Shown: positions 3,247 through 29,658 of the stretch, in pieces
Layout: each line of letters opens with the position of its first letter
Numbering within the stretch: position 1 is the first letter of the stretch
Assembly: GCA_937903135.1 (NCBI GenBank)
Contig: CALDAH010000011.1
Location: 1 to 56,795 of the forward strand
Reading direction: 5' to 3'
Length of the DNA stretch: 56,795 nt
Source: an uncultured Alphaproteobacteria bacterium
GTDB taxonomy: Bacteria > Pseudomonadota > Alphaproteobacteria > Rs-D84
The notes under the pieces: model-generated
What the model was told of the DNA's origin: nothing
The model's database searches: none
What the model saw: only the letters and a program-made list of their open reading frames with translations
Translations under genes and position numbers: made by a program

Positions 3247-5034
3247 TTGTTACCGATGGCAGTTCGCGTTTTACCAGAATTTTTAATTAATCAAATTGCC
3301 GCCGGCGAGGTAGTAGAACGCCCGGCAAGTGTCGTAAAGGAACTGGTTGAAAACGCACTGGATGCCGGCGCAGATCAGATTGTAATTGATGTTACCGACG
3401 GTGGGCGGACACGTATATCTGTTATGGATAATGGGCGCGGTATGTCGCGCGATGATCTGTCGCGGGCGGTTCTGCGACATGCGACGTCTAAATTACCGGA
3501 TGATGATTTATTAAATATTAATTTTATGGGATTTCGCGGCGAAGCGTTACCATCAATCGCAAGTGTATCGGATATGACAATTGATACATGCAACGGGGCC
3601 GATCCGCATGGATGGGTGCTGGACGCAAATACCGGTGATATTCGCCCATCCGCCTGGGAGGCGGGAACACGCATTCGCGTGGAAAATCTGTTCGCGAAAA
3701 CCCCGGCACGGTTAAAGTTTTTACGTGGCGATCGGGCCGAGATGATGTTTGTATTAGATGTTGTTAAACGGCTGGCGATGGCGCGTCCGGATGTCGGGTT
3801 TGTTTTAAACAATAAATGGCGTTTCCCAAAAGATGATGATATGGCCGCACGTATCGCGGCAGTTATGGGAACAGATGTATCGGGGCGAATGATTGAAATC
3901 GCCGCAACATCATCGTCCGGATCGGATTTAGCGTTGCACGGATTTATATCCGAACCGACGCTGCGTCGTGCATCGTCTGTGGATCAGTATTTATTTGTAA
4001 ACGGTCGCCCGGTAAAGGATAAGGTTTTGGTCGGTGCGCTGCGGGCGGCATATATGGATGTTATGCATGCGCGTGAATTCCCGCTGTGCGCACTGTATCT
4101 TACGCTGGATCCGCGTAATGTAGATGTAAATGTTTCCCCGGCCAAGACCGAGGTGCATTTTCTTGAACCGTCGCATGTTCGGGCGTTTATTATTAAATCA
4201 TTGCGTGATGCGTTGGCAAAAACGATTGTGGCGACGGCGGCCGTGCCGGTGTCCGCGCCGCGTATGCCGTATGTTGCACCGGATGTTGCCCCGCGGCCGC
4301 AGGCGATAAATTTTAATATCCCGCCGGCCCGGGTTTCCGATCGCCCGGGAAATGCTTTTAATTCTGTATTCGCATCATTTACATCCCAGGCGGCCGCGCC
4401 AACTGTTGCGCCGGCCCGGGCGCATGATAACGCGGACGTATCTATGGGGGACGCGCCGTCTGCGTCGGCGATGCCACTTGGGCGCGTAATTGGCCAGATT
4501 GGAAATAAATATATTTTATCGGCCGCGGGTGAAAATCTGGTAATCACGGATCAGCATGCGGCGCATGAACGTATTACATATGAACGGCTGCGTGCGCATA
4601 GTATTAAGGTTCAGCCGCTGCTATCGCCGATTGTAATTCAGATGCGCGCAGAAGATGTTGCCGCCGTTTTAACCGTCGCGAACGATATGAAATCGGCCGG
4701 GCTGGCGATTGATGCGTTCGGCGATGATGCAATTGCGATTTTTGAAAAACCGGCCGACTGGGATCTGAACTGGGCGGATATGTTTCATGCCATCGCCGAC
4801 GAGGTGCGCTGCCATGGGCATTCGTCACAGTTGGCCGAACGGCTGCATTTGAAATTAGCAAACTATGCATGTCATCATTCGGTTCGCGCCGGCCAGAAAC
4901 TGGATATCGCCGGGATGGATGCATTACTGCGTGATATTGAACGAACACAGCGCGGCGGCGAATGTAATCATGGTCGGCCGGTGTATAAATTTATTCCGAT
5001 AACGGAACTAGACGGCTGGTTCGAACGGATTTAA
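3247..5034 (+). CDS. mutL: DNA mismatch repair protein MutL
   Basis: N-terminal NQIAAGEVVERPASVVKELVENALDAG (GHKL ATPase). C-terminal QHAAHERI and CNHGRP motifs. TTG start at 3247, or ATG at 3256. Confidence 0.93.
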   Translation: MLPMAVRVLPEFLINQIAAGEVVERPASVVKELVENALDAGADQIVIDVTDGGRTRISVMDNGRGMSRDDLSRAVLRHATSKLPDDDLLNINFMGFRGEALPSIASVSDMTIDTCNGADPHGWVLDANTGDIRPSAWEAGTRIRVENLFAKTPARLKFLRGDRAEMMFVLDVVKRLAMARPDVGFVLNNKWRFPKDDDMAARIAAVMGTDVSGRMIEIAATSSSGSDLALHGFISEPTLRRASSVDQYLFVNGRPVKDKVLVGALRAAYMDVMHAREFPLCALYLTLDPRNVDVNVSPAKTEVHFLEPSHVRAFIIKSLRDALAKTIVATAAVPVSAPRMPYVAPDVAPRPQAINFNIPPARVSDRPGNAFNSVFASFTSQAAAPTVAPARAHDNADVSMGDAPSASAMPLGRVIGQIGNKYILSAAGENLVITDQHAAHERITYERLRAHSIKVQPLLSPIVIQMRAEDVAAVLTVANDMKSAGLAIDAFGDDAIAIFEKPADWDLNWADMFHAIADEVRCHGHSSQLAERLHLKLANYACHHSVRAGQKLDIAGMDALLRDIERTQRGGECNHGRPVYKFIPITELDGWFERI

Positions 5035-13706: not shown

Positions 13707-14084
13707 TTGGTAAATAGTGATAAAAATTCTGAGTTTGCGTTGGCGGTTGCGAACCTGGCTGCGGCGGCAATGGCGGCAAATCCGGGAATGGATATGGCCA
13801 CGGCCGTGGCTGCGGCGCGCGAAACATTACGCGGCGCAACCGTTAGTCCGCGGCAGATTGAACAATCGGTCCTCCCGGATAAAATTCAATGCCTGGAGGA
13901 TGGTACGTGGCATATTATGCTGCGCCGGTATATTAAACGTAAATTCAATATGACCCCGGAACAGTATCGTCAGAAATGGGGACTGCCAAATAATTACCCG
14001 TTCGTTGCGCCGAACTATACCCAGCGGCGTTCTAAGATTGCGAAAAAGACCGGGCTGGGTAAAACAAAATCAGGGGAAAAATAA
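13707..14084 (+). CDS. Ros/MucR-family transcriptional regulator lacking the canonical zinc ligands
   Basis: MTPEQYRQKWGLPNNYPFVAPNYTQRRSKIAKKTGLG is the Ros/MucR signature. TTG start. Confidence 0.8.
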   Translation: MVNSDKNSEFALAVANLAAAAMAANPGMDMATAVAAARETLRGATVSPRQIEQSVLPDKIQCLEDGTWHIMLRRYIKRKFNMTPEQYRQKWGLPNNYPFVAPNYTQRRSKIAKKTGLGKTKSGEK

Positions 14085-15895
14085 TGGCTGATAAAATAAC
14101 AACAGCCGAAAGGTTGGGGAAAAAATTAGATGCCGGGGCAGATATATTTAAAGATGCACGGTTAAAGCTTTTAGATATTCATACAATATCTGGGCCGAAA
14201 AATACTCTGAAAATCAGCGCGGTTGTGTTATTTTGGCTGGCGCAAAATTCCATAAAAGTATTTAACAAAGCATTTGTTAATAATTCTTTGCTGCGAATAA
14301 TGGAACGCGGTACGGAAAAACTGTTCAGCGATAAAGATATAAATATCGCGGGCAAGATCATAAAAAATAACCCATGGATATTATCATACCTTGCATACTT
14401 TATGATGATCGGCAGTATTTTGTCCGCCGCCGATCGTAATCGGGCGGATAGCAATGATGGGGGGGGTAAAAAAATCGCGCAAACCGAAAACACCCGCAGG
14501 GCAGAGCCGAATACCGAGACATTAGCAAAGGATATATTTTCGCATTCCGCGGCCCGTAAAACCGCCGATGTATCGCTGGATAGATACTGGCCCGATATCG
14601 TTATCGGATTAACTGAACTGGAAACATATTACCCCGAGCCGCGGCGCAATCCGGGTGAAAAACGCTATACATCTGGTCTGGGGCTGACGTGGACATACAA
14701 ATACAATAACAGCGGCGCGCTGCGTCAAACCCCGAACGGGGAAGATACACCGGCCCGGGGTATGGATGACAATTTTGAACAGCTGCGTCGGCATTTAATC
14801 GCTGAAACATTTCCACGTCTGGTCCGTGTTACGGCCGGTCGGGAAAATATAACGGATCGGGCGGCAATTGCGCTGGTATACGCGGGATATCAACGATTGG
14901 CGGATATGGATCGTATTGCTGAAAAAATTAATAACGCCAAAAATGACCAACAAATCGCGGACGCTTTTATGGACGTTGGTAATATGAATTCCAAGTGGCT
15001 GAAAGGGACATTAAAACGTCGCTGGATATGTGCTGCATATGCTATCGGTGCGATAACATCAGACGATCTGTTGAATATGAATCGTGATGCATTCTCGGCT
15101 GTGGATATAAATACTATTATCCGCCACGGGCATTTCCTATTGGGGCCCGAGACTGTAAAATACGTACTCTCGCGCAGGAACTCTAATAATACTGTATCGG
15201 ATTTTCTAAATGGCTTTGAAACGGGGCGCGGTATTCTGGCGGCGGTCGGCGTTGATAAAGCAGCGCATGATTCGTCGGTCGCGATGGCCACAGATGTAAA
15301 TATTGAAAAATCAATGGTGTTCTGTAATCGCGCTGACCGGTCGCTGGCAAAAAAGAATTATACCAGGGCAATAGATTTGTTTAAACAGGCAATTGACCAT
15401 GACCCGGATAATATAGAGGCATATAGCAGCCTGGCGTTGGCATATAATAAACTTGGTGATCAAAAATCCGATATTAAATTTTACGAACAAGCTATCGTGG
15501 CCGTTGCGGGATGTAATCAGCGGATGAACGACAATAAAGAATTATTGCTAGACTATGATATAAAGGCCGCGTCGTATTATAACGCCGGCCGTGCCCGCGA
15601 GAAAATTGCAAATATTTACGAACTGCAGGGCAAAAAAGATTTAGCCCAAGAAAACATGCGGCTGGCGCTGAATAACTATAAAACCGCATTGGAAAATTGC
15701 CGGCAGGGGAACGGGGGCGCCGCGCGAATTGATCTATATAGCCGGTTAATTAAGAAGTTAGAGAATAAGCTAAAAAACAAAACCGTGGCATATGAATCAG
15801 GGGCGATTAAGATTAATAATATTCAAAAACAGCGCGAGGCTGATATCTATGGATTACCATTTAACGGAAATATTATACCAGGGGGACGTTTATGA
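14084..15895 (+). CDS. Membrane-anchored protein with a T4-lysozyme-like (GH24-like) central region and C-terminal TPR repeats
   Basis: TM segment PWILSYLAYFMMIGSILSAA. By-eye similarity to T4L: ELETYY...YTSGLGLT, ITDRAAIALVYAGYQ, NSKWLKGTLKRR. TPR: YTRAIDLFKQAIDHDPDNIEAYSSLALAYNKLGD. The start overlaps the mucR stop (TAATG). Confidence 0.5.
   Translation: MADKITTAERLGKKLDAGADIFKDARLKLLDIHTISGPKNTLKISAVVLFWLAQNSIKVFNKAFVNNSLLRIMERGTEKLFSDKDINIAGKIIKNNPWILSYLAYFMMIGSILSAADRNRADSNDGGGKKIAQTENTRRAEPNTETLAKDIFSHSAARKTADVSLDRYWPDIVIGLTELETYYPEPRRNPGEKRYTSGLGLTWTYKYNNSGALRQTPNGEDTPARGMDDNFEQLRRHLIAETFPRLVRVTAGRENITDRAAIALVYAGYQRLADMDRIAEKINNAKNDQQIADAFMDVGNMNSKWLKGTLKRRWICAAYAIGAITSDDLLNMNRDAFSAVDINTIIRHGHFLLGPETVKYVLSRRNSNNTVSDFLNGFETGRGILAAVGVDKAAHDSSVAMATDVNIEKSMVFCNRADRSLAKKNYTRAIDLFKQAIDHDPDNIEAYSSLALAYNKLGDQKSDIKFYEQAIVAVAGCNQRMNDNKELLLDYDIKAASYYNAGRAREKIANIYELQGKKDLAQENMRLALNNYKTALENCRQGNGGAARIDLYSRLIKKLENKLKNKTVAYESGAIKINNIQKQREADIYGLPFNGNIIPGGRL
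14459..14466 (+). repeat. G8 homopolymer, followed by A7, inside the 603-aa ORF
   Basis: Counted directly: gg+gggggg at 14459-14466, t, then a7 at 14468-14474. Encodes DGGGKK. Confidence 0.9.
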
Positions 15896-17838
15896 AAGTT
15901 TATGTAAATTATAACGATAAGCGTTGGAAAAAATATAAAATTGATTTTGAAAAAATCGCCTCTATGGCTGTATCCGCTGCATACAGCGAATCCGAGGTGT
16001 CGGTTATATTAACAAATGACGCAGAAATTCATCAGCTTAATAAACAATATCGTAATATTGACCGACCAACGAATGTTTTATCATTTGAGCTCGGCGATGA
16101 TATTTTATTAGGGGATATTTATATATCACTTGATACCGTTATGCGCGAGGCAGCAGATGCAAAAATATCTGTATCCGATCATACGGCGCATATGCTGGCA
16201 CATGGCATGCTGCATCTGCAGGGGTATGATCATTTAAATGACAAAGATGCACGTGTTATGGAATCGCGCGAGATAAAGATATTAAAAAAAATGGGTATTA
16301 AAAATCCCTATGCGGGTGAAAAAAAATCTCTGATCCGATATGCGGCATATTTTTTATGCGGTGCGATCGCTGCGTTGGGGTTTGCGCCGTTTTATATATG
16401 GCCTGCGACCCTTATCGCAATTGCGGCGGCGTATTGGATGACCGTATCCGATACCGATAGCGCGGGAATCGCAAAGACCGCATGGCGCGTATTCCCGTTC
16501 GGTGCAGCATATGCGATTGCGATGTTTTGGTGGGCATTAAATTCAATATATGTTGTCCCAGAGCTTGCCGCGCAGTTTGCTATATGGACGATTCCTGCGA
16601 TCGCCGCGATTGGTATTGCCGGTGGGATTATATTCGCCGCGCCATTTGTTGCCGTCGGCTGCGTTAAAACAACAGCGTATGCGCGCCCGATTATTTTTGC
16701 CGCCGCGTGGATGGTTGTTCTGTGGATGCGTGAATGGGTATTTACCGGTTTCCCATGGAATCCGATTGCAAATATTGCAATGCCGTGGCAGGGATTGGCA
16801 AATTCTATGTCGTTATGGGGGGCATTGGGATTAACGTTTATAATTATCGGATTTATCGCCGCCGGGGTTGAGGTTTTGCGTAATAAAAAATGCGCTATGT
16901 GCTGGATTATATGGGCTGCGTTCGTTTTGATGGGCGGCGTCGGCATCATCGCCGGAGAGAGAAATATTCACATCGCATCCGCCGGCGACCCGTCACCTGT
17001 GGTGCGAATTATTCAGCCCGCCCGTGCGCAGTCGGATAAAATATCATACTCGCGCAGTGATGCCCAACGCCGGGCCGAGGAAAATGTTCGCGATCTGTTA
17101 TCAATCGCCGTGGACCGGGGCGGGGAAACACCGGATTTAATTGTATACCCCGAAACTACGTACCCGTTTGTTGTTATCCCCGGGGATGATATGCCGTTTT
17201 CCAAAATACTCGGGACGAATGTAATTTTGGGGGCGACGACATATTCAGATAATAAAATATATAACTCTATGATTGTTGCTGACAAAGACGGCGTTATTCA
17301 GAAAATATATAGTAAATCACATCTTGTCCCGTTCGGGGAATATGGGCCGTTAGGTTTTTTACCGTCGCCGGCGAATCTCGCGCGCGGGGCAGGGGCGGAT
17401 ATAATAACAATTAACGCGCCCGGGGGGAATTTTATTTTTTCACCCGCGATTTGTTACGAGATTATTTTTTCAGATTCACTTATCCCGCGCAATAGCACCG
17501 CACCGGCGGCAATAATAAATATAACCAACGATACATGGTTTGGGAAAACCCCCGGGACATATCAGCATTTAGATATGGTTCGCAGATATGCAATTGAATC
17601 CGGTATGCCGATAATTCGCGCTAACTATTCCGGGATCAGTGCGTTTGTTGCGGCGGATGGGAAAATTTTATCGTCACTGCCGATCGGCGTTCGCGGAATT
17701 ATTGACGGGCGTGTATTCGGGGCGCATAAAACAATTTATCGCACCATAGGGCGCGACGGCTGGGTAATAATATTTTTACTGTTTTCATGTGTTACGGTAA
17801 TATTAATAAATCACCGTTCGCATCAGAACAAAGATTAA
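15892..17838 (+). CDS. Fused endoribonuclease YbeY (aa 1-140) and apolipoprotein N-acyltransferase Lnt (aa ~146-648)
   Basis: YbeY: HGMLHLQGYDH and the end ...MGIKNPY. Lnt: LVYPETTYP (E), YSKSHLVPFGEY (K), AICYEIIF (C) and 8 TM-like segments. No stop codon between them. ATGA overlap with the upstream ORF. Confidence 0.85.
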   Translation: MKVYVNYNDKRWKKYKIDFEKIASMAVSAAYSESEVSVILTNDAEIHQLNKQYRNIDRPTNVLSFELGDDILLGDIYISLDTVMREAADAKISVSDHTAHMLAHGMLHLQGYDHLNDKDARVMESREIKILKKMGIKNPYAGEKKSLIRYAAYFLCGAIAALGFAPFYIWPATLIAIAAAYWMTVSDTDSAGIAKTAWRVFPFGAAYAIAMFWWALNSIYVVPELAAQFAIWTIPAIAAIGIAGGIIFAAPFVAVGCVKTTAYARPIIFAAAWMVVLWMREWVFTGFPWNPIANIAMPWQGLANSMSLWGALGLTFIIIGFIAAGVEVLRNKKCAMCWIIWAAFVLMGGVGIIAGERNIHIASAGDPSPVVRIIQPARAQSDKISYSRSDAQRRAEENVRDLLSIAVDRGGETPDLIVYPETTYPFVVIPGDDMPFSKILGTNVILGATTYSDNKIYNSMIVADKDGVIQKIYSKSHLVPFGEYGPLGFLPSPANLARGAGADIITINAPGGNFIFSPAICYEIIFSDSLIPRNSTAPAAIINITNDTWFGKTPGTYQHLDMVRRYAIESGMPIIRANYSGISAFVAADGKILSSLPIGVRGIIDGRVFGAHKTIYRTIGRDGWVIIFLLFSCVTVILINHRSHQNKD

Positions 17839-19952: not shown

Positions 19953-19995
19953 TTGTCTTTGATTGTATCATATTTATGATAAAGTAAAAAGTGGA

Positions 19996-20658
19996 ATGAT
20001 TACATCTGATTTAATTTTTGATGATTTTACAAATTTATTATGCGCATGGGTGTCCGCAGATGCCGCCGGCGCAGATTTAGCAAAGGTTGCCGAGCATGCG
20101 ATAGCCGATAAAATGCCGTTGATTTCGGTTGCGCCGGGGGCACTCGGGACGATTTGGCCGTGGCTGGAAAAAGAACCGGTTAAGATTATGGCACGTTTTT
20201 ATTATACACCACCAGAGATGGATATATCAGAACTGGCGCGGACAATAAACGCCGCATTTAAAAATGGCGCAGACGGGGCACAGATATTTTTATCTGTAAA
20301 AGATTTAGATGGATTTGTCGGGGATATTAAATCTATTCGTGATGATTTATTTTTTAATAGATATTTATCTGTTGGTATTGATATCGGGGAAATTGCTGCG
20401 TGTGACTGGGAACGGATATTTATGTCATTACGGGAAATTCGCGCGTCATCGGTTATATTCGCTTTGACTCGGGATGCGGGGGATAAATCCGATTTTGTCG
20501 GGCGAATTTACGGAATGCTGGATGCGTTTGATAAAAAATTTACAGGTGATGTGCATTTCGTGTTGGGGAAAAATTTTGAACGGTCAAACCAGACACTGCG
20601 TTTAATTCATAAAATGCAGCCGGGGTTGGCCAATGGTGCGCGATTTTTTATTGGTTAA
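19996..20658 (+). CDS. Hypothetical protein
   Basis: ORF 19963..20658. I prefer the ATG at 19996 (MITSDL...). No family recognised. Confidence 0.45.
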   Translation: MITSDLIFDDFTNLLCAWVSADAAGADLAKVAEHAIADKMPLISVAPGALGTIWPWLEKEPVKIMARFYYTPPEMDISELARTINAAFKNGADGAQIFLSVKDLDGFVGDIKSIRDDLFFNRYLSVGIDIGEIAACDWERIFMSLREIRASSVIFALTRDAGDKSDFVGRIYGMLDAFDKKFTGDVHFVLGKNFERSNQTLRLIHKMQPGLANGARFFIG

Positions 20659-20684
20659 TAAATCTTTTAAAGGGAACGGTATAG

Positions 20685-21302
20685 ATGAAGAAATTATTTT
20701 TATTTTATATTTTAATCGCCGCCCCGTGCGAACTGTTCGCCATGGCAGATTATGACACGCCGGTATACGGTCGGCCGACGCTATACGGGGAATATGAAAT
20801 ATCGGCCGATGATGTGCGTTGCGCCGGTGATATGTACGGCAGCGGTTCATCGCGGGTTAAGCCTGTCCGTATAACAGCGCCGGTTGCCAAAACACCGGCG
20901 GCAAAGCATCCGATAAAGCCCCAGGGGGCGGTTAAAAAGAAGTCCAAATCCAATATAAAAAAAGAAAAGGGTGGGGCGAAAAAATCTGGGGATAAAAAAA
21001 TAGTCGCCCCGGAAAAGGCCGCGGTAGCGGATAATGCGCCCGTAATGGTTGCGAATACTGTGCCAGATACAGAAATAAAAGAAAAAACAGAAAAGACCCA
21101 AGCTCATTTGCCTGTGATTCCGGATGCAGATATGCCCGCGGTTAACGAGAATGCAAAAAACATCGCAGATGCGGCATTAATGCGCATAGATATTGATTCA
21201 TACTGCACGCAGCGGGGCAGTTTTTCCGGCGGGAATTTCCCTGCGGGTATTATTGTTATGCCGGGGCGTCCTGATTTAATGAGCTGCGGCGATAAAAAAT
21301 AA
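20685..21302 (+). CDS. Secreted Lys/Ala-rich hypothetical protein
   Basis: Signal peptide (LFA-MA) and a low-complexity KKxK region. Cys-containing C-terminus. Confidence 0.45.
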   Translation: MKKLFLFYILIAAPCELFAMADYDTPVYGRPTLYGEYEISADDVRCAGDMYGSGSSRVKPVRITAPVAKTPAAKHPIKPQGAVKKKSKSNIKKEKGGAKKSGDKKIVAPEKAAVADNAPVMVANTVPDTEIKEKTEKTQAHLPVIPDADMPAVNENAKNIADAALMRIDIDSYCTQRGSFSGGNFPAGIIVMPGRPDLMSCGDKK

Positions 21303-21304
21303 AA

Positions 21305-21946
21305 TTAGTTTTTATTGCGCAGGATTAAATATTTAGGGGCAGCCGTTTCCGCCATATTCTTTGACTGATACCGGGTTTTGATTACCGCGATGTCAGGTAT
21401 TTCAGCGCACAGGTTCGTTTCGGGTATCTGATTTACAATCCAGTCAAAGTATTCCCAATGGTCTGTGCCGATAATTATCTCGCCGTTCGGGCGCAGTGCG
21501 CGGCCGATTATATTTAAAAATTCGCTATGGAGCAGGCGGCGTTTTTCATGACGCGCCTTTGGCCAGGGGTCGGGGTGCAGAACCCATATTTGATTAAACT
21601 TTAAATCACTGTCGCGCAGTAAATCGCGAACGTCGTCGGGCCATATATATATGTTTTTATATTCGGCGCGCACGGTATTATCCGATTCGGATGTAATCGC
21701 CGATAGTAATGCTGCAACGCCGTTCATAAACGGTTCGGCCCCGATAATTTCCGCATCAGGGCGTTCGGCGGCCAGCGCACGCAGGTGTTCCCCCGCACCA
21801 AAGCCGATTTCCAGTATTAAATCGCCATTGTTTTTAATATTTCGCGGCAAGAGGCCCGGCAACGTATTGGCGATTAGCTGCTGCTTACGGGTAGATAATT
21901 TTTTGCCATGACGGCGACCAAAAGTTCTTATTTCTTGTTTTTCCAT
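21305..21946 (-). CDS. trmB: tRNA (guanine46-N7)-methyltransferase TrmB
   Basis: LEIGFGAGEHL (SAM site) and HPDPWPKARHEKRRL. Start set at MEKQEIRTFGRRHGK (21946) to avoid overlapping gltX. Confidence 0.88.
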   Translation of the reverse strand: MEKQEIRTFGRRHGKKLSTRKQQLIANTLPGLLPRNIKNNGDLILEIGFGAGEHLRALAAERPDAEIIGAEPFMNGVAALLSAITSESDNTVRAEYKNIYIWPDDVRDLLRDSDLKFNQIWVLHPDPWPKARHEKRRLLHSEFLNIIGRALRPNGEIIIGTDHWEYFDWIVNQIPETNLCAEIPDIAVIKTRYQSKNMAETAAPKYLILRNKN

Positions 21947-21992
21947 ATAATTAGTATAAAATTCCAAATATAAGAAAACAAGGTTAAATAAC

Positions 21993-23570
21993 ATGAGACA
22001 GGGTTTTAGTTCAAATTTTATTAATCAGCTATTAGGGGGCGCACCAAAATATACTATCGCAGAGCTGGAAGAAAAATTCCCGCCGCGCGCGCTGCCCGAC
22101 GGGGCGTTCGTTACGCGATTTGCGCCAAGTCCGACCGGGTATATGCATATCGGCGGTCTGTATGGCGCGTTGATTGATTCTAAGCTGGCGCAGCAGACTG
22201 GCGGCGTGTTTATGCTGCGAATCGAGGATACAGATACCCGGCGCGAGGTTAAAGATGCGGTTGATATTATTGTTGCTTCGCTGAATCAATTCGGGTTGCC
22301 GTATAATAATGATCCTGAATATGGGCCGTATTATCAGTCCCAGCGCAGGGATATTTATCACAGTGTTGCGGCGGATCTGTTGGCGCGTGGTATGGCGTAC
22401 CCGTGTTTTTTAACGCCCGATGATATGGCCGAAATTCGCGAAAAACAAAAATCCGCCGGATTCCCGACGGGGATTTATGGTGAATTTGCCCGTGATCGCG
22501 ATATTAGCGAAGATGAAGCCTGGGCGCGCTTAAACGCAGGCCAGGTTGCGACAATTCGCCTGTATTCCACAGGCAATCCCGAAAAGCGCATTTTCTGTAA
22601 GGATGCCGTTCGTGGTTCAATCGGTTTCCCTGAAAATAACGAAGATCTGGTTTTAATTAAGTCAAATGATGGGCTGCCGACGTATCATTTCGCGCATTTA
22701 TGTGATGATCATTTTATGCGCACGACCCATGTTATTCGTGGCGAGGAATGGCTGCCATCACTGCCGCTGCATATGCAGCTGTTCCGTATGATGGACTGGG
22801 CCGCGCCAATATATATTCATACGTCAACGATTGATAAAATTGATGCCAATACCGGAAAACAGCGAAAGCTATCTAAACGGCACGACCCAGAGGCAAATGT
22901 TGCATTCTTTTTAGCGGATGGATGGCCGACGGAATCTGTTTTGGAATATTTATTTAATATCGCCGCCGCCGGGTACGAGGAAGCAAAACAAAAGGGCCAG
23001 GTTAAAAATATCTGGGATTATGAAATGCGCCCGAAAAAGATTCCAATGTCCGGGGCGTTGTTTGATATGAAAAAACTGGAATGGTGGGCGCGTGAGTTTA
23101 TCGGTTCGCTGCCGGTCCCGGAATTGGTTGCGCGTGTCGTTAATTGGGCGAATGAATACGGTGATGAAAATCATAAAAATCAGGTGTCCGATATTGACTA
23201 TCTAACGGCGGCGCTGTCAATTGAACGCGATAATCCAAAGCGTGTTCGCAAAGACTTTATTACATGGCGTCAAACGTTAAACGAGATCGCGTATTTCTGG
23301 GATGCGTTATATGTTGCGAACAGCGAATATGAATTTAATCGCGATGTGCTGAAAATGTTCCTGGATAGATATAACCCGGCCGATGACAAAGACACATGGT
23401 GGGGGAAAATTGTTGCGATCGCAGGGGAACTGGGGATTAAAAACGGTGACGCGGCGATGAGTTTGCGCGTGGCGGTCACGGGTCGGACAAATACGCCTGA
23501 TCTATATTCGCTAATGCATGTTATGGGGCACGGGCGCGTTGTTTCACGTATAAAGGATATATTAAAATGA
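21993..23570 (+). CDS. gltX: Glutamate--tRNA ligase
   Basis: FAPSPTGYMHIGG (HIGH) and KLSKRH (KMSKS). 525 aa. Confidence 0.9.
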   Translation: MRQGFSSNFINQLLGGAPKYTIAELEEKFPPRALPDGAFVTRFAPSPTGYMHIGGLYGALIDSKLAQQTGGVFMLRIEDTDTRREVKDAVDIIVASLNQFGLPYNNDPEYGPYYQSQRRDIYHSVAADLLARGMAYPCFLTPDDMAEIREKQKSAGFPTGIYGEFARDRDISEDEAWARLNAGQVATIRLYSTGNPEKRIFCKDAVRGSIGFPENNEDLVLIKSNDGLPTYHFAHLCDDHFMRTTHVIRGEEWLPSLPLHMQLFRMMDWAAPIYIHTSTIDKIDANTGKQRKLSKRHDPEANVAFFLADGWPTESVLEYLFNIAAAGYEEAKQKGQVKNIWDYEMRPKKIPMSGALFDMKKLEWWAREFIGSLPVPELVARVVNWANEYGDENHKNQVSDIDYLTAALSIERDNPKRVRKDFITWRQTLNEIAYFWDALYVANSEYEFNRDVLKMFLDRYNPADDKDTWWGKIVAIAGELGIKNGDAAMSLRVAVTGRTNTPDLYSLMHVMGHGRVVSRIKDILK

Positions 23571-24313
23571 CCAAAAATAAAAAGGCTGTAAAAACAAAGC
23601 TAAAGGCTGTAAAGAAAGACACGCATGCGAACAGATTGCTGCGCGCATTACGGGCGACGGGGCTGTTTCGCTGGGAACGGCCATCAACCAAATCCGAAGA
23701 GGTGTTAAATATCCTTACCCATGGTATTGGGATCGGACTGGCGATGGCGGGGCTGACGCTGCTGGAGGTGTTTGCGGCATTCAAAGGCGATGCGTGGGCA
23801 ATTGTATCGTGTGCGATATTCGGGGTTACAATGTTTACGTTGTATTTCGGATCAACAATGTGTCACGCAACAATCGGGCAAAAATGCGAATGTTTTTTTG
23901 AGGTATGGGACAGCGTTGCAATATATGCATTAATCGCCGGAACATATACGCCGTTTTTATTGGTAAATCTGCGCGGGGGACTGGGGTGGACGGTTTTTGG
24001 AATCCTTTGGGCGATTGTAATATTTGGCGCGGTAATGAAAATACGCAACCCAAAACAGCAGCCGCGATGGATGGTATTGCTGTATCTGATTATGGGATGG
24101 ACGCTGCTGTTTATATTGCCGGCAATGGTTCGTAATATTCCGGCCCGCGGTATGTGGTTTATTTTAGCAGGTGGGCTGTCATATTCACTCGGGGTGATAT
24201 TTTATCTATGGCGGAAAATGAAATTTTCACATACGATATGGCATCTGTTTGTAATCGGGGGAAGTGTGTGTTTCTTCTTTGCGGTGCTGTTCGGATGTAT
24301 AATTGATTTTTAA
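23567..24313 (+). CDS. Hemolysin III / PAQR family membrane protein with a Lys-rich N-terminal extension
   Basis: 7-TM pattern with NILTHGIGIGLA and HLFVIGGS motifs. ATGA overlap with gltX. Confidence 0.85.
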   Translation: MTKNKKAVKTKLKAVKKDTHANRLLRALRATGLFRWERPSTKSEEVLNILTHGIGIGLAMAGLTLLEVFAAFKGDAWAIVSCAIFGVTMFTLYFGSTMCHATIGQKCECFFEVWDSVAIYALIAGTYTPFLLVNLRGGLGWTVFGILWAIVIFGAVMKIRNPKQQPRWMVLLYLIMGWTLLFILPAMVRNIPARGMWFILAGGLSYSLGVIFYLWRKMKFSHTIWHLFVIGGSVCFFFAVLFGCIIDF

Positions 24314-24318
24314 AAAAC

Positions 24319-24343
24319 GCCGGCAATTTGCCGGCATTTTTTT
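24319..24343. terminator. Bidirectional rho-independent terminator
   Basis: Stem gccggca/tgccggc flanked by A6 and T7, between convergent stop codons. Confidence 0.75.
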
Positions 24344-25202
24344 ATGATTCATCCATGCCCAGGGTTTTCAATTTATCCGTAAGCGATATATTATCCAACG
24401 CTTCGGCGATGCAGAGAATGGGGCGATGACGTTTATCCCAATAGTTATATTTTGCCATATAGCCGGTTTCTAAGATAAAATGATTTGATCGTATGCGGTA
24501 TGCACCGTCGCATACACATATTTTTTCGTATTCAAATTTATCCTTTGTGCCGTCGTGTTCAAAAAATACAAAATCTATTTCTTTGCCGGGATATATTTTT
24601 TTCATAATTTCTGCGCCCTGGATAACATCGGCGTCGGATACCGGCGCGTCCATCAGGTTTCGTTGATCACCCAGGCGGTGCGCCCAGCATATTAATATCC
24701 GATCCGATTGGTCAATTGCGCGCAATAGACGTTCAGAACGACGATTTATTATCTGTTTAGCCGTCGGGAAAAACAGTTCCCATGATGTATTATTTGGGAA
24801 TAAATGCGAAAAACGAATTCGGGTTCGTGTGTTTAGCATATCCTGATGCAGATAATGGTCGGCAACATATGTGCGGCGGACAATAAAATCTTCGTAATTA
24901 AAGAAGTCATGGAATTTAGTAGCGATGGCATTTATTTTTTCCAAAAATCTGGTATCGCGCCATATATTCGTTTCTTCCCAGTTAACGGGCAGTTCGCCAT
25001 CGGTCCAGTCAATTGGCGACGACATAAGACGCAGGTTATGGGCTTGTAAAATTGTGCTGACAGGGCATGCCGCGCCGATTGCAAAAACCAGATCGTATTT
25101 ATCAAAACGCCCCGGACGCAATATCGCGTTGTTTGTTTGTTTGTTTGTTTGTTTGTTTGTTTGTTTGTTTGTTTGTTGCTGCCCAATCGTTTTTTGCCGC
25201 AT
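24342..25202 (-). CDS. DUF1796-like (putative papain-like) protein: body of a candidate phase-variable gene
   Basis: 286-aa ORF. YDLVFAIGAACPVSTILQAHNLRLMSSPIDW resembles the DUF1796 N-terminal motif (from memory, not searched). Contains the TNKQ repeat near its N-terminus. Confidence 0.6.
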   Translation of the reverse strand: MRQKTIGQQQTNKQTNKQTNKQTNNAILRPGRFDKYDLVFAIGAACPVSTILQAHNLRLMSSPIDWTDGELPVNWEETNIWRDTRFLEKINAIATKFHDFFNYEDFIVRRTYVADHYLHQDMLNTRTRIRFSHLFPNNTSWELFFPTAKQIINRRSERLLRAIDQSDRILICWAHRLGDQRNLMDAPVSDADVIQGAEIMKKIYPGKEIDFVFFEHDGTKDKFEYEKICVCDGAYRIRSNHFILETGYMAKYNYWDKRHRPILCIAEALDNISLTDKLKTLGMDES

Positions 25203-25347
25203 AGTATTTTTTCCATAATTTGCGTTTGGTCAGCCTTTTGGATATCGGGTTTGTATAATCCATAATCGCACGGCGAACACGGGCACGTTTTTCACGCGAC
25301 GGGAAAAATCCCGCCGCAATATTTGCAATAATTTTCTTTGTACGCAT
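25102..25347 (-). CDS. 5' segment of the same gene, currently out of frame with the body across the tetranucleotide tract
   Basis: ATG at 25347 gives MRTKKIIANIAAGFFPSREKRARVRR..., reads through the repeat as TNKQ and stops at 25102. Removing 4 nt joins it to frame 24342..25202. Confidence 0.55.
   Translation of the reverse strand: MRTKKIIANIAAGFFPSREKRARVRRAIMDYTNPISKRLTKRKLWKKYYAAKNDWAATNKQTNKQTNKQTNKQRDIASGAF
25129..25177. repeat. Perfect tetranucleotide microsatellite, 12.25 units (TTGT/GTTT on the + strand, AAAC/CAAA on the coding strand)
   Basis: Counted base by base. G occurs every 4th position from 25131 to 25175, and periodicity breaks at 25128 and 25178. Confidence 0.97.
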
Positions 25348-25438
25348 AGATATTCTATTGTTTTTATTAGTTTTATGTAATGCTTAAAAGTATAGCAGGC
25401 ATGTTATAAAAAATCAATGTAAATGTAGTATGCAACCC

Positions 25439-25467
25439 TTGATTTTTACAAATATAAGTATTAGAAT
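25439..25467 (+). promoter_or_regulatory. Sigma70-like promoter candidate for the thrS leader
   Basis: TTGATT (25439-25444), 17-nt spacer, TAGAAT (25462-25467). Confidence 0.35.
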
Positions 25468-25476
25468 ATAATAAAT

Positions 25477-25533
25477 ATGAAAAAATTTAGTTCTGTTTTC
25501 TTTACAACAACTACAACCCCTCTGGGGGTGTAA
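25477..25533 (+). CDS. Candidate Thr-rich leader peptide (18 aa) upstream of thrS
   Basis: Hand-translated as MKKFSSVFFTTTTTPLGV*, with five consecutive Thr codons at 25504-25518. Lies 84 nt upstream of thrS. Confidence 0.5.
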   Translation: MKKFSSVFFTTTTTPLGV

Positions 25534-25616
25534 TTTCTATTTGCGGATTTCGCCGCGCAGTGCAATAATTAAACAAACAATTAATTTTTTATATATTTAA
25601 AATAAGGGTTTTTATT

Positions 25617-27350
25617 ATGTCATATCCTATTGAAACGATTCGTCATTCGCTGGCCCACGTTATGGCCGCCGCTGTTCAGAAATTGTATCCGGACGTAAAG
25701 TTTGCGGGCGGACCGGCAATTGAAAACGGTTTTTACTATGATTTTGATACAGAACATCGTTTTTCAGAAGATGATTTTGAAAAAATTGAAAAAGAGATGC
25801 GTGCGCTAATTAAATCAGATGGTAAATTCGCCCAGCGTAACGTTTCCGTCGCCGAAGCGATGGAGGTTTTTGCAGATCAGCCGTATAAAATGGAATGGCT
25901 GCGGGAATACGATGCCGCAGGTGATGCGCTGTCTGTATACGCGTTTCGTGATTTTACCGATTTATGTCGCGGCCCGCATGTCGCATCGTCCAAAGATCTG
26001 CCGCGTGATGGATTTAAAATTCGTACCGTCGCCGGTGCATACTGGAAAGGTGATGCGAAAAATAAAATGCTGCAGCGTATTTATGTTGATGCATTCGCAT
26101 CCAGGGAAGAATTAGATGAATTCTTAAAAATGCAAGAAGAGGCCGCCGCCCGCGATAACCGTAAGCTCGGGCGCGATATGGATTTATTCCATTTTGAACC
26201 GGAATATGCGCCGGGGGCTGTATTTTGGCATGACAAAGGGTATAAAATTTATCGCCGTTTGATTGAATATATTCGTCATCGTCAGGAACTGGCCAGGTAT
26301 CAGGAAATATCTACGCCGGCCGTAATGGATAGATGTTTATGGGAACGCAGCGGCCACTGGGCAAAATATGGCGAACATAACTATTCCGGTAAAACCCAGG
26401 ATGGAAAAACGTTCTGTGTTAAACCGATGTCGTGCCCGGGCGGAATGCTGGTATTCGGGCAGGGGATAAAATCATATAAGGATTTGCCGCTGTATCTGGC
26501 CGAATTCGGGAAAGTTAATCGCTATGAGGCGGCAGGCGGCCTGTCGGGGATAATGCGTGTACGCGAGTTTACCCAGGACGATGCCCATATTTTCTGTACC
26601 GAGGATCAGCTGGAAGAAGAGGTTGTAAAAATCCTGCGCTTTATTAAAGATATTTATAATAAATTCGGATTTGAAAAAATTTCTATGAAGCTGGCAACGC
26701 GCAAAGAATCAGAGTTCCGTATCGGTTCAGATGAAATCTGGGATCGTGCCGAAGGGGCACTGCGTCATGCGCTGGATGCAAACGGAATTGAATATGAAAT
26801 CGCCCCGGGTGATGCTGCGTTCTATGGCCCGAAAATTGATAATTATTTAAAAGATTCCATGGGACGTATATGGCAGTGCGGAACAGTTCAGCTGGATATG
26901 AATCTGCCGGAACGATTTGATCTGTCGTATATCGGCGAAGACGGGGAAAAGCATCGTCCGATTATGTTGCACCGTGCAATGCTGGGATCAATTGAACGAT
27001 TTATGGGAATATTACTGGAATCAACGGGGGGAAATCTGCCGTTGTGGTTAAGTCCAGAGCCCGTCGTTGTAACGCCGATTTCGGAAAAGTATAAAGACTA
27101 TGCGTTGGATGTCGTCGGAAAACTGCGCGCCGCAGGTGTTTATGCACGCGCCGATCTGCGTGACGAGAAGGTAAACTATAAAATCCGTGAGCTGTCATTG
27201 GCAAAAACACCGATTATCGCCGTTGTTGGTGAAAAAGAAATGGCCGATAATACCGTAACTCTGCGTCGCCTGGCCGGGGCAGACCAAGAAACGGTCGTGC
27301 TGGACGATTTTGTCGAACAGATGAAAAACGCCGTAAAGTTACCGGAATAA
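25617..27350 (+). CDS. thrS: Threonine--tRNA ligase without the N-terminal TGS domain
   Basis: Begins at the editing-domain motif RHSLAHVMAAAVQKLYP. Has DLCRGPH, class II core motifs and an anticodon-binding C-terminus. 577 aa. Confidence 0.92.
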   Translation: MSYPIETIRHSLAHVMAAAVQKLYPDVKFAGGPAIENGFYYDFDTEHRFSEDDFEKIEKEMRALIKSDGKFAQRNVSVAEAMEVFADQPYKMEWLREYDAAGDALSVYAFRDFTDLCRGPHVASSKDLPRDGFKIRTVAGAYWKGDAKNKMLQRIYVDAFASREELDEFLKMQEEAAARDNRKLGRDMDLFHFEPEYAPGAVFWHDKGYKIYRRLIEYIRHRQELARYQEISTPAVMDRCLWERSGHWAKYGEHNYSGKTQDGKTFCVKPMSCPGGMLVFGQGIKSYKDLPLYLAEFGKVNRYEAAGGLSGIMRVREFTQDDAHIFCTEDQLEEEVVKILRFIKDIYNKFGFEKISMKLATRKESEFRIGSDEIWDRAEGALRHALDANGIEYEIAPGDAAFYGPKIDNYLKDSMGRIWQCGTVQLDMNLPERFDLSYIGEDGEKHRPIMLHRAMLGSIERFMGILLESTGGNLPLWLSPEPVVVTPISEKYKDYALDVVGKLRAAGVYARADLRDEKVNYKIRELSLAKTPIIAVVGEKEMADNTVTLRRLAGADQETVVLDDFVEQMKNAVKLPE

Positions 27351-28445: not shown

Positions 28446-28461
28446 GACAAGAGGATAAAAA

Positions 28462-28794
28462 ATGTTTGGACGTTTTGGCTGGGCCGAAATACTGGTAATC
28501 GTTGTATTGGTCGTAATTTTATTCGGGCATAATAAAATCCCGGGAATGATGAAGAATTTAGCCGACGGGGTAAATATCTTTAAAAAAGAATTAAAAACGA
28601 CAAATAAAAACGTAAACTCCGCGGATGCGAAAAAAGCGAACGGGAATAATACGGTTAAAAACGTAAACAAGTCGCAGAGTGTAAAAAAATCACAGCCGAA
28701 AAAAAATACGGCAGCGACAAAAAATATGGCAGCGAAAAAAAATACTGCGCCAAAGACCGCAGCACGTGTGCGTCAGAAAACGGCCAAGAAATAA
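28462..28794 (+). CDS. tatA: Twin-arginine translocase TatA/E-type subunit with a long Lys-rich tail
   Basis: MFGRFGWAEILVIVVLVVILFGHNKIPGMMKNLADGV. Confidence 0.85.
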   Translation: MFGRFGWAEILVIVVLVVILFGHNKIPGMMKNLADGVNIFKKELKTTNKNVNSADAKKANGNNTVKNVNKSQSVKKSQPKKNTAATKNMAAKKNTAPKTAARVRQKTAKK

Positions 28795-28811
28795 TAATCG
28801 CTTGAATTAAA

Positions 28812-28844
28812 AACCGGGTAATAATTTTATGCCCGGTTTTTTTA
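28812..28844 (+). terminator. Rho-independent terminator after tatA
   Basis: Stem aaccggg/cccggtt followed by a T-run. Confidence 0.6.
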
Positions 28845-28868
28845 TATATTTATATAAACGAAGTAATA

Positions 28869-28897
28869 AAAAAGCACCAGATTATGGTGCTTTTTTA
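28869..28897 (-). terminator. Rho-independent terminator after dksA (bidirectional form)
   Basis: Stem agcacca/tggtgct flanked by A6 and T6. Confidence 0.65.
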
Positions 28898-28898
28898 T

Positions 28899-29333
28899 TT
28901 AATCGTTTTTACGGCTTTCGTATTCTTCCTGTTCTTCGACGGTCATTGTCGCCAATGGTCGCGCCATCATTCGGTTCAGGCCGATTTCGTCACCCGATAC
29001 AACGCTGTAACCGTATGTACCGTTTTCCATTCGTTCCAATGCTGCATTAATTTTTCGCAACAGGTTATTATCACGCTGGGACATATGCAGATTCATCTGA
29101 ATATCCTGTTCAAATGTTGCGTTGTCCATGGTGTCGCCGACACCCGCGCTTTGGTTTTTTTCAACCAAACGAACCGCGCTAAGTACAGAATCGCTGTCCT
29201 GTACCAGCTCTTCTTTCTGGGTGTTTAGCAGCTGATAAAAATACGCCAATTGTTCCGGGCACATATACGGCTCGGACTTTTTCGGGGTATATTTTGCTGG
29301 TAATTCCAGAGTTTTATAATTTACCTTAGCCAT
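28899..29333 (-). CDS. dksA: RNA polymerase-binding factor DksA, Cys-less (zinc-independent type)
   Basis: Coiled-coil region with the DxxDxA-type tip (GDTMDNATFEQD). C-terminal GTYGYSVVSGDEIGLNRMMARPLATMTVEEQ. Confidence 0.8.
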   Translation of the reverse strand: MAKVNYKTLELPAKYTPKKSEPYMCPEQLAYFYQLLNTQKEELVQDSDSVLSAVRLVEKNQSAGVGDTMDNATFEQDIQMNLHMSQRDNNLLRKINAALERMENGTYGYSVVSGDEIGLNRMMARPLATMTVEEQEEYESRKND

Positions 29334-29337
29334 CGTT

Positions 29338-29658
29338 TTAGGCCCTCTGTATTTCCATAATCCAATCGGTAAGTGTTTCTTCGTCCATCAGACCGCTGCG
29401 TGCTTCGATCAATTCGCCGTTTTTGAATGCCAAAACACTTGGGATTCCGCGTATTCCGTATTTTGCCGCAGTCCGACGATTTGATTCGTCAATTTCAAAT
29501 TTTACAAAGTTTACACCGGAAATCTTTTCTGATGTTGCCTCAAATATCGGGCCAAACATACGACATGGACCACACCAAGACGCCCAGAAATCAACGAATG
29601 TAATGCCGTCTTTTACTAAGTCTGTAAAATTTGAATCATTTGCATGTTTCAAAGCCAT
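29338..29658 (-). CDS. trxA: Thioredoxin
   Basis: WASWCGPCRMFGP. Start set at MALKHAND, which has GGAG 7 nt upstream. 106 aa. Confidence 0.92.
   Translation of the reverse strand: MALKHANDSNFTDLVKDGITFVDFWASWCGPCRMFGPIFEATSEKISGVNFVKFEIDESNRRTAAKYGIRGIPSVLAFKNGELIEARSGLMDEETLTDWIMEIQRA

Follow-up and report, generated by a model that had tools for sequence, protein, structure and literature searches.

Can a short repeat inside a coding sequence act as an on/off switch in an uncultured gut bacterium? The question is raised by a stretch of 56,795 nucleotides (nt), here called the window, from an uncultured member of the Alphaproteobacteria (order Rs-D84; contig CALDAH010000011.1), in which a minus-strand gene between hlyIII and thrS (24342–25347) contains a long tetranucleotide tract and is frameshifted at it. 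Phase variation through simple sequence repeats (SSRs) has been documented almost entirely in cultured pathogens, and the gene considered here appears to be one of the textbook type, in an uncultured lineage of gut Alphaproteobacteria. According to a review from 2025, phase variation is apparently restricted to pathogens, which is an open question and perhaps a matter of database or sampling bias (PMC11868660). We consider it probable that slipped-strand gain and loss of ACAA units toggles the gene between a full-length and a truncated product, i.e., that it is an SSR contingency gene, as a first-pass annotation of the window had suggested.

The repeat tract and the full-length gene

The tract (25129–25177) is 100% perfect: the coding minus strand reads (ACAA)12, which encodes (TNKQ)n, and the plus strand TTGT x 12.25. 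Both the raw sequence and Tandem Repeats Finder (period 4, 12.2 copies, 100% matches, score 98) bear out the twelve units claimed in the first-pass annotation, and the program detected no second array of this kind within the 56.8-kb window. The chance expectation of a 20-nt (TTGT)5 probe was 0.00 in 100 dinucleotide-preserving shuffles. Counted from ATG 25347 on the coding strand, the tract starts 171 nt into the gene; the repeat is far beyond chance length, uninterrupted and situated in the 5′ part of an open reading frame (ORF), as is characteristic of SSR contingency genes.

Of the two minus-strand starts, ATG 25347 begins an ORF of 81 amino acids (aa) with its stop at 25102 and ATG 25202 one of 286 aa that ends at 24342. 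The starts are separated by 145 nt (1 mod 3), and all three minus-strand frames are open through the tract, an arrangement that had been described correctly beforehand. At the 12 units of the window, the 5′ segment is out of frame with the body. When the region was rebuilt in silico with 7 to 17 repeat units, a single ORF was obtained at 8, 11, 14, and 17 units (329, 333, 337, and 341 aa, respectively), and the remaining unit counts from 7 to 16 led to truncation at 77–85 aa or 131–143 aa. Gain and loss of units therefore exchange a full-length product (ON) for a truncated one (OFF) in this simulation, and the expected fusion of about 333 aa on loss of one unit or gain of two is recovered with 333 aa at 11 units and 337 aa at 14.

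Which of the two starts belongs to the gene follows from its relatives. The fused 333-aa translation matched 17 proteins, the best of which (P0001, 325 aa) is in frame, 97% identical across 100% of the query and represents an ON allele that occurs in nature; the other 16 are 37–45% identical. All homologues without an N-terminal truncation open with KKFIANxxxxFIPxRxxRHxVRR fused in frame to the body, and in the alignment this segment is followed by a variable spacer, a KYxxxKxxW motif, and the body. In the window, the 5′ segment (25102–25347, the 81-aa ORF of the OFF state) encodes the corresponding basic amphipathic N-terminus (KKIIANIAAGFFPSREKRARVRR) and a motif with K52 and W55, two near-invariant residues that sit upstream of the tract in the frame of ATG 25347. 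The tract itself is an insertion of at most 11 aa in the family alignment and is found in no other homologue.

Since the N-terminal segment is fused in frame to the body in the homologues, the full-length form is the real gene, and the conserved segment, K52/W55, and P0001 together identify it as the ancestral functional form. The 286-aa ORF (24342–25202) carries the predicted catalytic body behind a fortuitous internal ATG, with its first ~25 residues made up of out-of-frame tract and upstream sequence; the conserved K52/W55 stretch is read in the wrong frame there, and the ORF owes its existence to the chance of the present tract length and is not the ancestral gene. On this comparison of sequences ATG 25347 is the true start of the gene rather than ATG 25202, and the orthologues do possess coding sequence upstream of the tract position, the absence of which had been named as a point that would count against a switch.

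An AlphaFold2 model built from the alignment (predicted local distance difference test, pLDDT, 86; predicted template modelling score, pTM, 0.82) contains predicted helices at residues 2–12, 18–31, and 34–66. The tract-encoded residues 67–72, at the end of this last, long helix, are the sole segment with a pLDDT below 50, and the tract, the proposed site of slippage, is thus modelled as coding for a disordered linker ahead of the alpha/beta body. Since the tract residues lie in this low-confidence linker, in-frame changes of length should be tolerated.

Two other accounts of the tract were rejected. Programmed ribosomal frameshifting or transcriptional slippage would have to operate there without a homopolymer run or a canonical slippery heptamer, and the length of the DNA itself varies by strain. 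A plus-strand gene across the tract (ORF 24925–25218, 97 aa) is repeat-derived and unsupported.

Tract length within the species and in its sister species

The gene for the in-frame protein P0001 lies on the Logan contig L001 (sample SRR15067463), which differs from positions 19963–26504 of the window by eight substitutions in 6514 bp and by exactly one 28-bp (7-unit) gap in the tract. L001 has 5 repeat units, in frame, against 12 in the window, and the body (24342–25128) is 100% identical in the two. The comparison of unit number across related strains, one of the checks put forward in the first-pass annotation, therefore reveals a difference between near-identical genomes (8 single-nucleotide polymorphisms, SNPs, per 6.5 kb). 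Four of the eight substitutions cluster within ~250 bp (25229–25473) that comprise the 5′ portion of the coding sequence as well as the promoter region; two of them are adjacent non-synonymous changes (LT to RI) and the intergenic ones are at 25397 and 25473.

Five more contigs from other samples (L033–L037), retrieved by exact look-up of the HlyIII protein and 99.76–99.88% identical to the window, all end inside the tract after 29–30 nt of repeat (3′ ends at about 25157 of the window). Such breaks fit a de Bruijn assembly with k=31, presumably the setting of the Logan assembly, failing at a repeat longer than k; if this k holds, each of these strains has a tract of at least ~8 units. Most members of the species therefore probably carry a long tract, and the 5-unit allele is a short, in-frame, and presumably more stable variant. 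Contig breaks inside repeats might also offer an inexpensive way of screening k-mer assemblies for long SSRs. Additional strains were reached via HlyIII alone: an exact 25-mer over the left tract junction gave 0 matches in genome contigs and 0 in metagenome contigs, a related-locus search of metagenome contigs with P0001 found nothing, and exact look-ups of the 286-aa ORF, the 81-aa ORF, and the ThrS of the window returned no record.

In the sister species, the syntenic orthologue (L002; P0002 cluster) carries a poly-C tract in the same linker (L002 2532–2539). Across 22 contigs from many samples, this tract was C7 in eight, C8 in five, C9 in seven, and C10 in two, and C8 alone of these lengths keeps the frame. 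Among nine contigs that match one another without a single difference across 960 bp of coding and flanking sequence, the tract is C8 (L026–L028), C9 (L012, L014, L016, L017) or C10 (L029, L031), and the poly-C tract demonstrably mutates faster than substitutions accumulate. Every OFF variant retains an intact 276-aa body, often an identical one. Automated annotation splits or truncates genes of this kind: the sister gene is called at 278, 282, 292, 304 or 323–324 aa depending on tract length, and proteins of 278, 282, 292, 304, 323, and 324 aa make up its 90%-identity cluster.

As a control, SSR-free homologue clusters proved uniform in length, with 315 aa in all of the 15 listed from 94 members of one cluster and uniformly 309, 305 or 324 aa among the listed members of others. 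Neither SSRs, at the thresholds used, nor repeat-encoded peptides were detected in the other homologues. Two unrelated repeats at the same position of orthologous genes, one of them hypermutable, constitute the strongest support for a switch rather than debris, and the poly-C tract with its ON and OFF lengths lends independent support to the slipped-strand reading of the window.

A proposed slippage switch and its alternatives

In the mechanism proposed here, the gene would encode a protein of ~333 aa in which a short N-terminal segment, basic and amphipathic, leads into a long helix with a flexible linker and then into a divergent alpha/beta body of the DUF1796 type. Slipped-strand mispairing during replication would add or remove 4-nt units in the linker-coding (ACAA)n, so that unit counts of 2 mod 3 (5, 8, 11, 14) would yield the full-length protein and other counts would end translation 24 nt or ~200 nt beyond the tract. 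The window, with 12 units, would be in the OFF state, from which a change of -1 or +2 units would restore the frame, and switching would presumably be frequent and reversible within a population. The product may be an enzyme of the cytoplasm that associates with the membrane and makes or modifies a polysaccharide of the cell surface, in which case ON/OFF heterogeneity would provide a varied surface in the face of phage, host immunity or a partner organism.

Several observations weigh against such a switch. Tract lengths were read from consensus contigs, which makes the evidence for switching within a population comparative, and the resolved lengths in the species are 5 and 12 alone. The count of 12 in the window is itself that of an assembled consensus. 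No clear Shine-Dalgarno sequence is present at ATG 25347 or ATG 25202, as is the case for about half of the genes in the window. Finally, 17 of the 22 sister-species contigs are OFF, which is also how a dispensable, decaying gene would look.

That last point belongs to the alternative that survives best, in which a mutable tract lies in a dispensable gene that is being lost and the frameshift is a pseudogenising lesion. Such neutral decay would agree with the OFF state of the window, with the many OFF contigs of the sister species, with a gene outside any operon, and with the reduced genomes of related Rs-D84 gut Alphaproteobacteria (PMC12306168). We nevertheless regard it as unlikely, since the body has the same sequence in the window (OFF) and in L001 (ON) and is intact in the OFF variants of the sister species, both tracts are still perfect whereas decaying SSRs gather interruptions, ON and OFF lengths occur together on one SNP-free haplotype, and two unrelated SSRs occupy the same linker position of orthologues.

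Quite improbable is a switch between isoforms, in which the out-of-frame states would use ATG 25202 to produce the 286-aa enzyme without its N-terminal anchor, and localisation or partner binding rather than presence would be toggled. ATG 25202 is indeed in the body frame at 12 units, the body behind it is complete, and three frames are open across the tract. The 286-aa product would, however, be devoid of K52, W55, and most of the predicted helix 34–66; its ATG is located inside the translated 81-aa ORF without a good Shine-Dalgarno sequence and serves just one of the two OFF frames; and the OFF forms of the sister species have no equivalent conserved internal start, the proteins of 278, 282, and 292 aa reflecting ad hoc starts chosen by gene callers. 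It is this loss of conserved residues, together with the missing counterpart in the sister species, that makes us disfavour it.

Least probable of all is a miscount, with a true tract in frame (e.g., 11 units) and 12 as an artefact of assembling a 48-nt repeat, for although repeats are error-prone in assembly and five de Bruijn contigs break exactly at this one, the tract is perfect with clean and unique flanks, 5 units are unambiguously spanned in L001, the poly-C OFF lengths come from contigs with 36–76x coverage (from contig names), and the locus would still be length-variable even were the window ON.

Protein family, genomic slot, and known contingency loci

The slippage switch being the preferred reading, the nature of its product becomes the next question. 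The first-pass label "DUF1796-like" stands at the profile level and fails as a direct match, as the window protein scores 16 bits on PF08795 (DUF1796) against a cut-off of 23 (E 0.011, residues 86–117). The family profile retrieved 1490 proteins at E ≤ 1e-3 and 714 at E ≤ 1e-10, and 19 of 20 distant profile matches scanned (E ~1e-66 to 1e-22), all of them long, multi-domain relatives, score 34–85 bits on PF08795. Profile-level homology to proteins that pass the PF08795 threshold, without a direct match above it, places the protein in the superfamily and not in the curated family, and compared with PF08795 at large, the proteins of this clade are extended by helices at the N-terminus and by further elements at the C-terminus. 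In the family alignment, variation is absent or almost absent at C93, H180, H263, and H288 and at several Asp and Asn positions; C93, which is invariant, sits at the N-terminus of a helix. PF08795 is described as "putative papain-like cysteine peptidase", yet no member with demonstrated activity or a solved structure was found in the literature and the PDB, and a literature search on DUF1796 and PF08795 returned nothing functional.

A pointer to function comes from the domain fusions of distant relatives. Eight of the 20 scanned proteins are fused to domains of polysaccharide synthesis or modification, namely Glycos_transf_1/GT4 (two), Glycos_transf_2, WbsX, DUF4422, Glyphos_transf (TagF-like), RgpF, and Acyl_transf_3, from which a role in the synthesis or modification of surface glycans is a reasonable inference rather than a result. 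The basic FIPxRxxRxxxR module is N-terminal in this clade and lies at the extreme C-terminus of ~13 distant DUF1796 proteins, where a hydrophobic stretch is followed by FIPxKxxRxKLR (P0049, P0054, P0061, P0069, P0089, P0093, P0098, P0109, P0119, P0123, P0125, P0134, P0147), which suggests a portable peptide that may bind the membrane or a partner. By reading of the sequence, the protein has neither a signal peptide-like nor a transmembrane-length hydrophobic stretch, and scans of it against NCBIfam, PADLOC, and PHROGs gave no matches. Glycosyltransferase matches in Pfam or NCBIfam were absent at E ≤ 1, which leaves the protein outside the recognised glycosyltransferase families.

The assignment to surface glycans has its own points against it. 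The functional evidence consists of domain fusions in distant relatives. PDB searches with the single sequence and the family profile yielded nothing meaningful, and Foldseek searches of the PDB with the AlphaFold2 model gave no match, papain-like or other, at E ≤ 0.001 and no TM-score above 0.16, so that no function can be assigned from the fold. The gene stands alone among housekeeping genes, and the non-syntenic homologues L009 and L010 have efflux, TruB, MutS, and PagL neighbours and not glycan clusters.

The relatives are encoded by nine GTDB species representatives, all uncultured gut or rumen Alphaproteobacteria, and seven of these (L002–L008) keep the arrangement gltX-hlyIII-[X]-thrS. 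Identity to the window across the seven is 86–89% for ThrS, 75–86% for HlyIII, and 71–77% for GltX, and 38–43% for the slot gene X, which is present in one or two copies of varying orientation, e.g., L004 5005–5919 and 6001–6939, L008 2451–3326 (minus strand) and 3871–4803 (plus strand), and the single copy of the window (24342–25347, minus strand). The slot copies are ~40% identical to one another, which suggests that the slot holds an old, diversifying or recombining gene cassette. Its conserved boundaries are hlyIII on the left (23567–24313, plus strand; Pfam HlyIII on the identical L001 protein) and thrS on the right (25617–27350, plus strand; Pfam tRNA_SAD, tRNA-synt_2b, and HGTP_anticodon on orthologues). 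The divergent intergenic region between the gene and thrS (25348–25616) is AT-rich (25% GC) and contains promoter-like sites for the minus-strand gene at 25417–25389 and 25381–25352, and a GC-rich hairpin with T/A runs on either side (GCCGGCAATTTGCCGGC, 24319–24335) is likely a bidirectional terminator shared with the convergent hlyIII. The gene itself, described as AT-rich in the first-pass annotation, is AT-richer than its flanks to a mild degree (GC 42–43% vs 46–48%).

Elsewhere in the window, a G8 run followed by T and A7 (GGGGGGGGTAAAAAAA, 14459–14473) lies inside a 603-aa TPR-repeat ORF (14084–15895), ~375 nt after the start, where its present length is in frame; this sole G/C homopolymer of at least 8 nt in the window could mark a second SSR-variable gene. 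A 648-aa ORF at 15892–17838 combines a YbeY endoribonuclease domain (residues 15–134) with apolipoprotein N-acyltransferase domains (LNT_N, CN_hydrolase); this is a fused gene, or else the mechanical ORF list has run two neighbouring genes together. The ~1 kb at 28446–29422, which follows a SPOR-domain gene and has neither an ORF of at least 150 aa nor an Rfam or tRNA match, contains an 18-nt tandem repeat (CGAAAAAAAATACGGCAG x2.7, 28697–28745).

Among known contingency genes, the closest in type are the tetranucleotide loci of Haemophilus influenzae (lic1A, lic2A, and lic3A with CAAT, lgtC with GACA, lex2A with GCAA, and mod with AGTC) and their equivalents in Moraxella and Neisseria. As in those genera, a perfect tetranucleotide tract lies in the 5′ part of the gene and a change in units moves the reading frame, so that the product is either complete or cut off early, unit number varies between close strains, repeat types differ between the orthologues of different species, and the likely target is surface-glycan biosynthesis. 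Unlike the Haemophilus genes, the unit is ACAA, the protein is of the DUF1796 type rather than a recognised glycosyltransferase, choline kinase or methyltransferase, and the locus stands alone between housekeeping genes and not in a lipooligosaccharide (LOS) locus; it is also known here from the comparison of sequences. The host is an uncultured gut alphaproteobacterium and not a gamma- or betaproteobacterial mucosal pathogen as in Haemophilus and Neisseria (a difference recorded in the analysis as one of phylum). The locus works like the contingency genes lic2A, lgtC, and lex2A but is no member of their families.

Campylobacter jejuni provides a second comparison, with phase-variable genes for the modification of capsule, LOS, and flagellar glycans that are stand-alone and have G/C tracts of 8–10 nt in their 5′ region; ON/OFF mixtures are common among its isolates and multi-locus phasomes are documented. 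The C7–C10 orthologue of the sister species resembles these poly-G glycan-modifying genes of poorly defined families, but there is no sequence relationship, the Campylobacter genes are located in glycan loci, and the 57-kb window contains one locus and one G8 tract. The details given here for Haemophilus, Moraxella, and Neisseria derive in part from De Bolle et al. 2000 (reference 126 in PMC11868660).

Within the Alphaproteobacteria, SSR contingency loci have been shown experimentally in Bartonella, in the form of mononucleotide tracts in the adhesin gene badE (PMC11466379). Both cases concern host-associated Alphaproteobacteria and ON/OFF frameshifting at an intragenic SSR, also among natural isolates, and the poly-C of the sister species is of the same, mononucleotide type. 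The Bartonella product, in contrast, is a trimeric autotransporter adhesin whose switching was shown in animal passage (PMC11466379), as opposed to a tetranucleotide tract, a cytoplasmic-type enzyme, and comparative evidence in the present case. Because of these demonstrated loci, the earlier statement that no described phase variation of this kind was known in a genome that looks alphaproteobacterial and host-associated holds for this clade, repeat type, and protein family and not for the class as a whole.

What the locus may mean for its hosts can be put more broadly, if tentatively. In orthologous genes, repeats of two independent types have converged on one and the same linker, and it is possible, though somewhat short of probable, that different species have independently put the fast-diversifying DUF1796 enzyme of this slot under SSR control (ACAA in one, poly-C in the other), making it a dedicated surface bet-hedging locus of a non-pathogenic, possibly partner-dependent gut symbiont. 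Relatives in the order Rs-D84 are gut bacteria of reduced genome size that may depend on a partner (PMC12306168). Population ON/OFF ratios can be read from existing metagenomic reads, and the locus marks out the DUF1796 family as a target of selection that fluctuates, probably via surface glycans. Should the bet-hedging reading be true, no earlier locus of the kind would have been recognised in this clade from metagenomes alone, DUF1796 would gain a first functional handle, and the evolution of a contingency locus would become traceable across hosts through public read sets.

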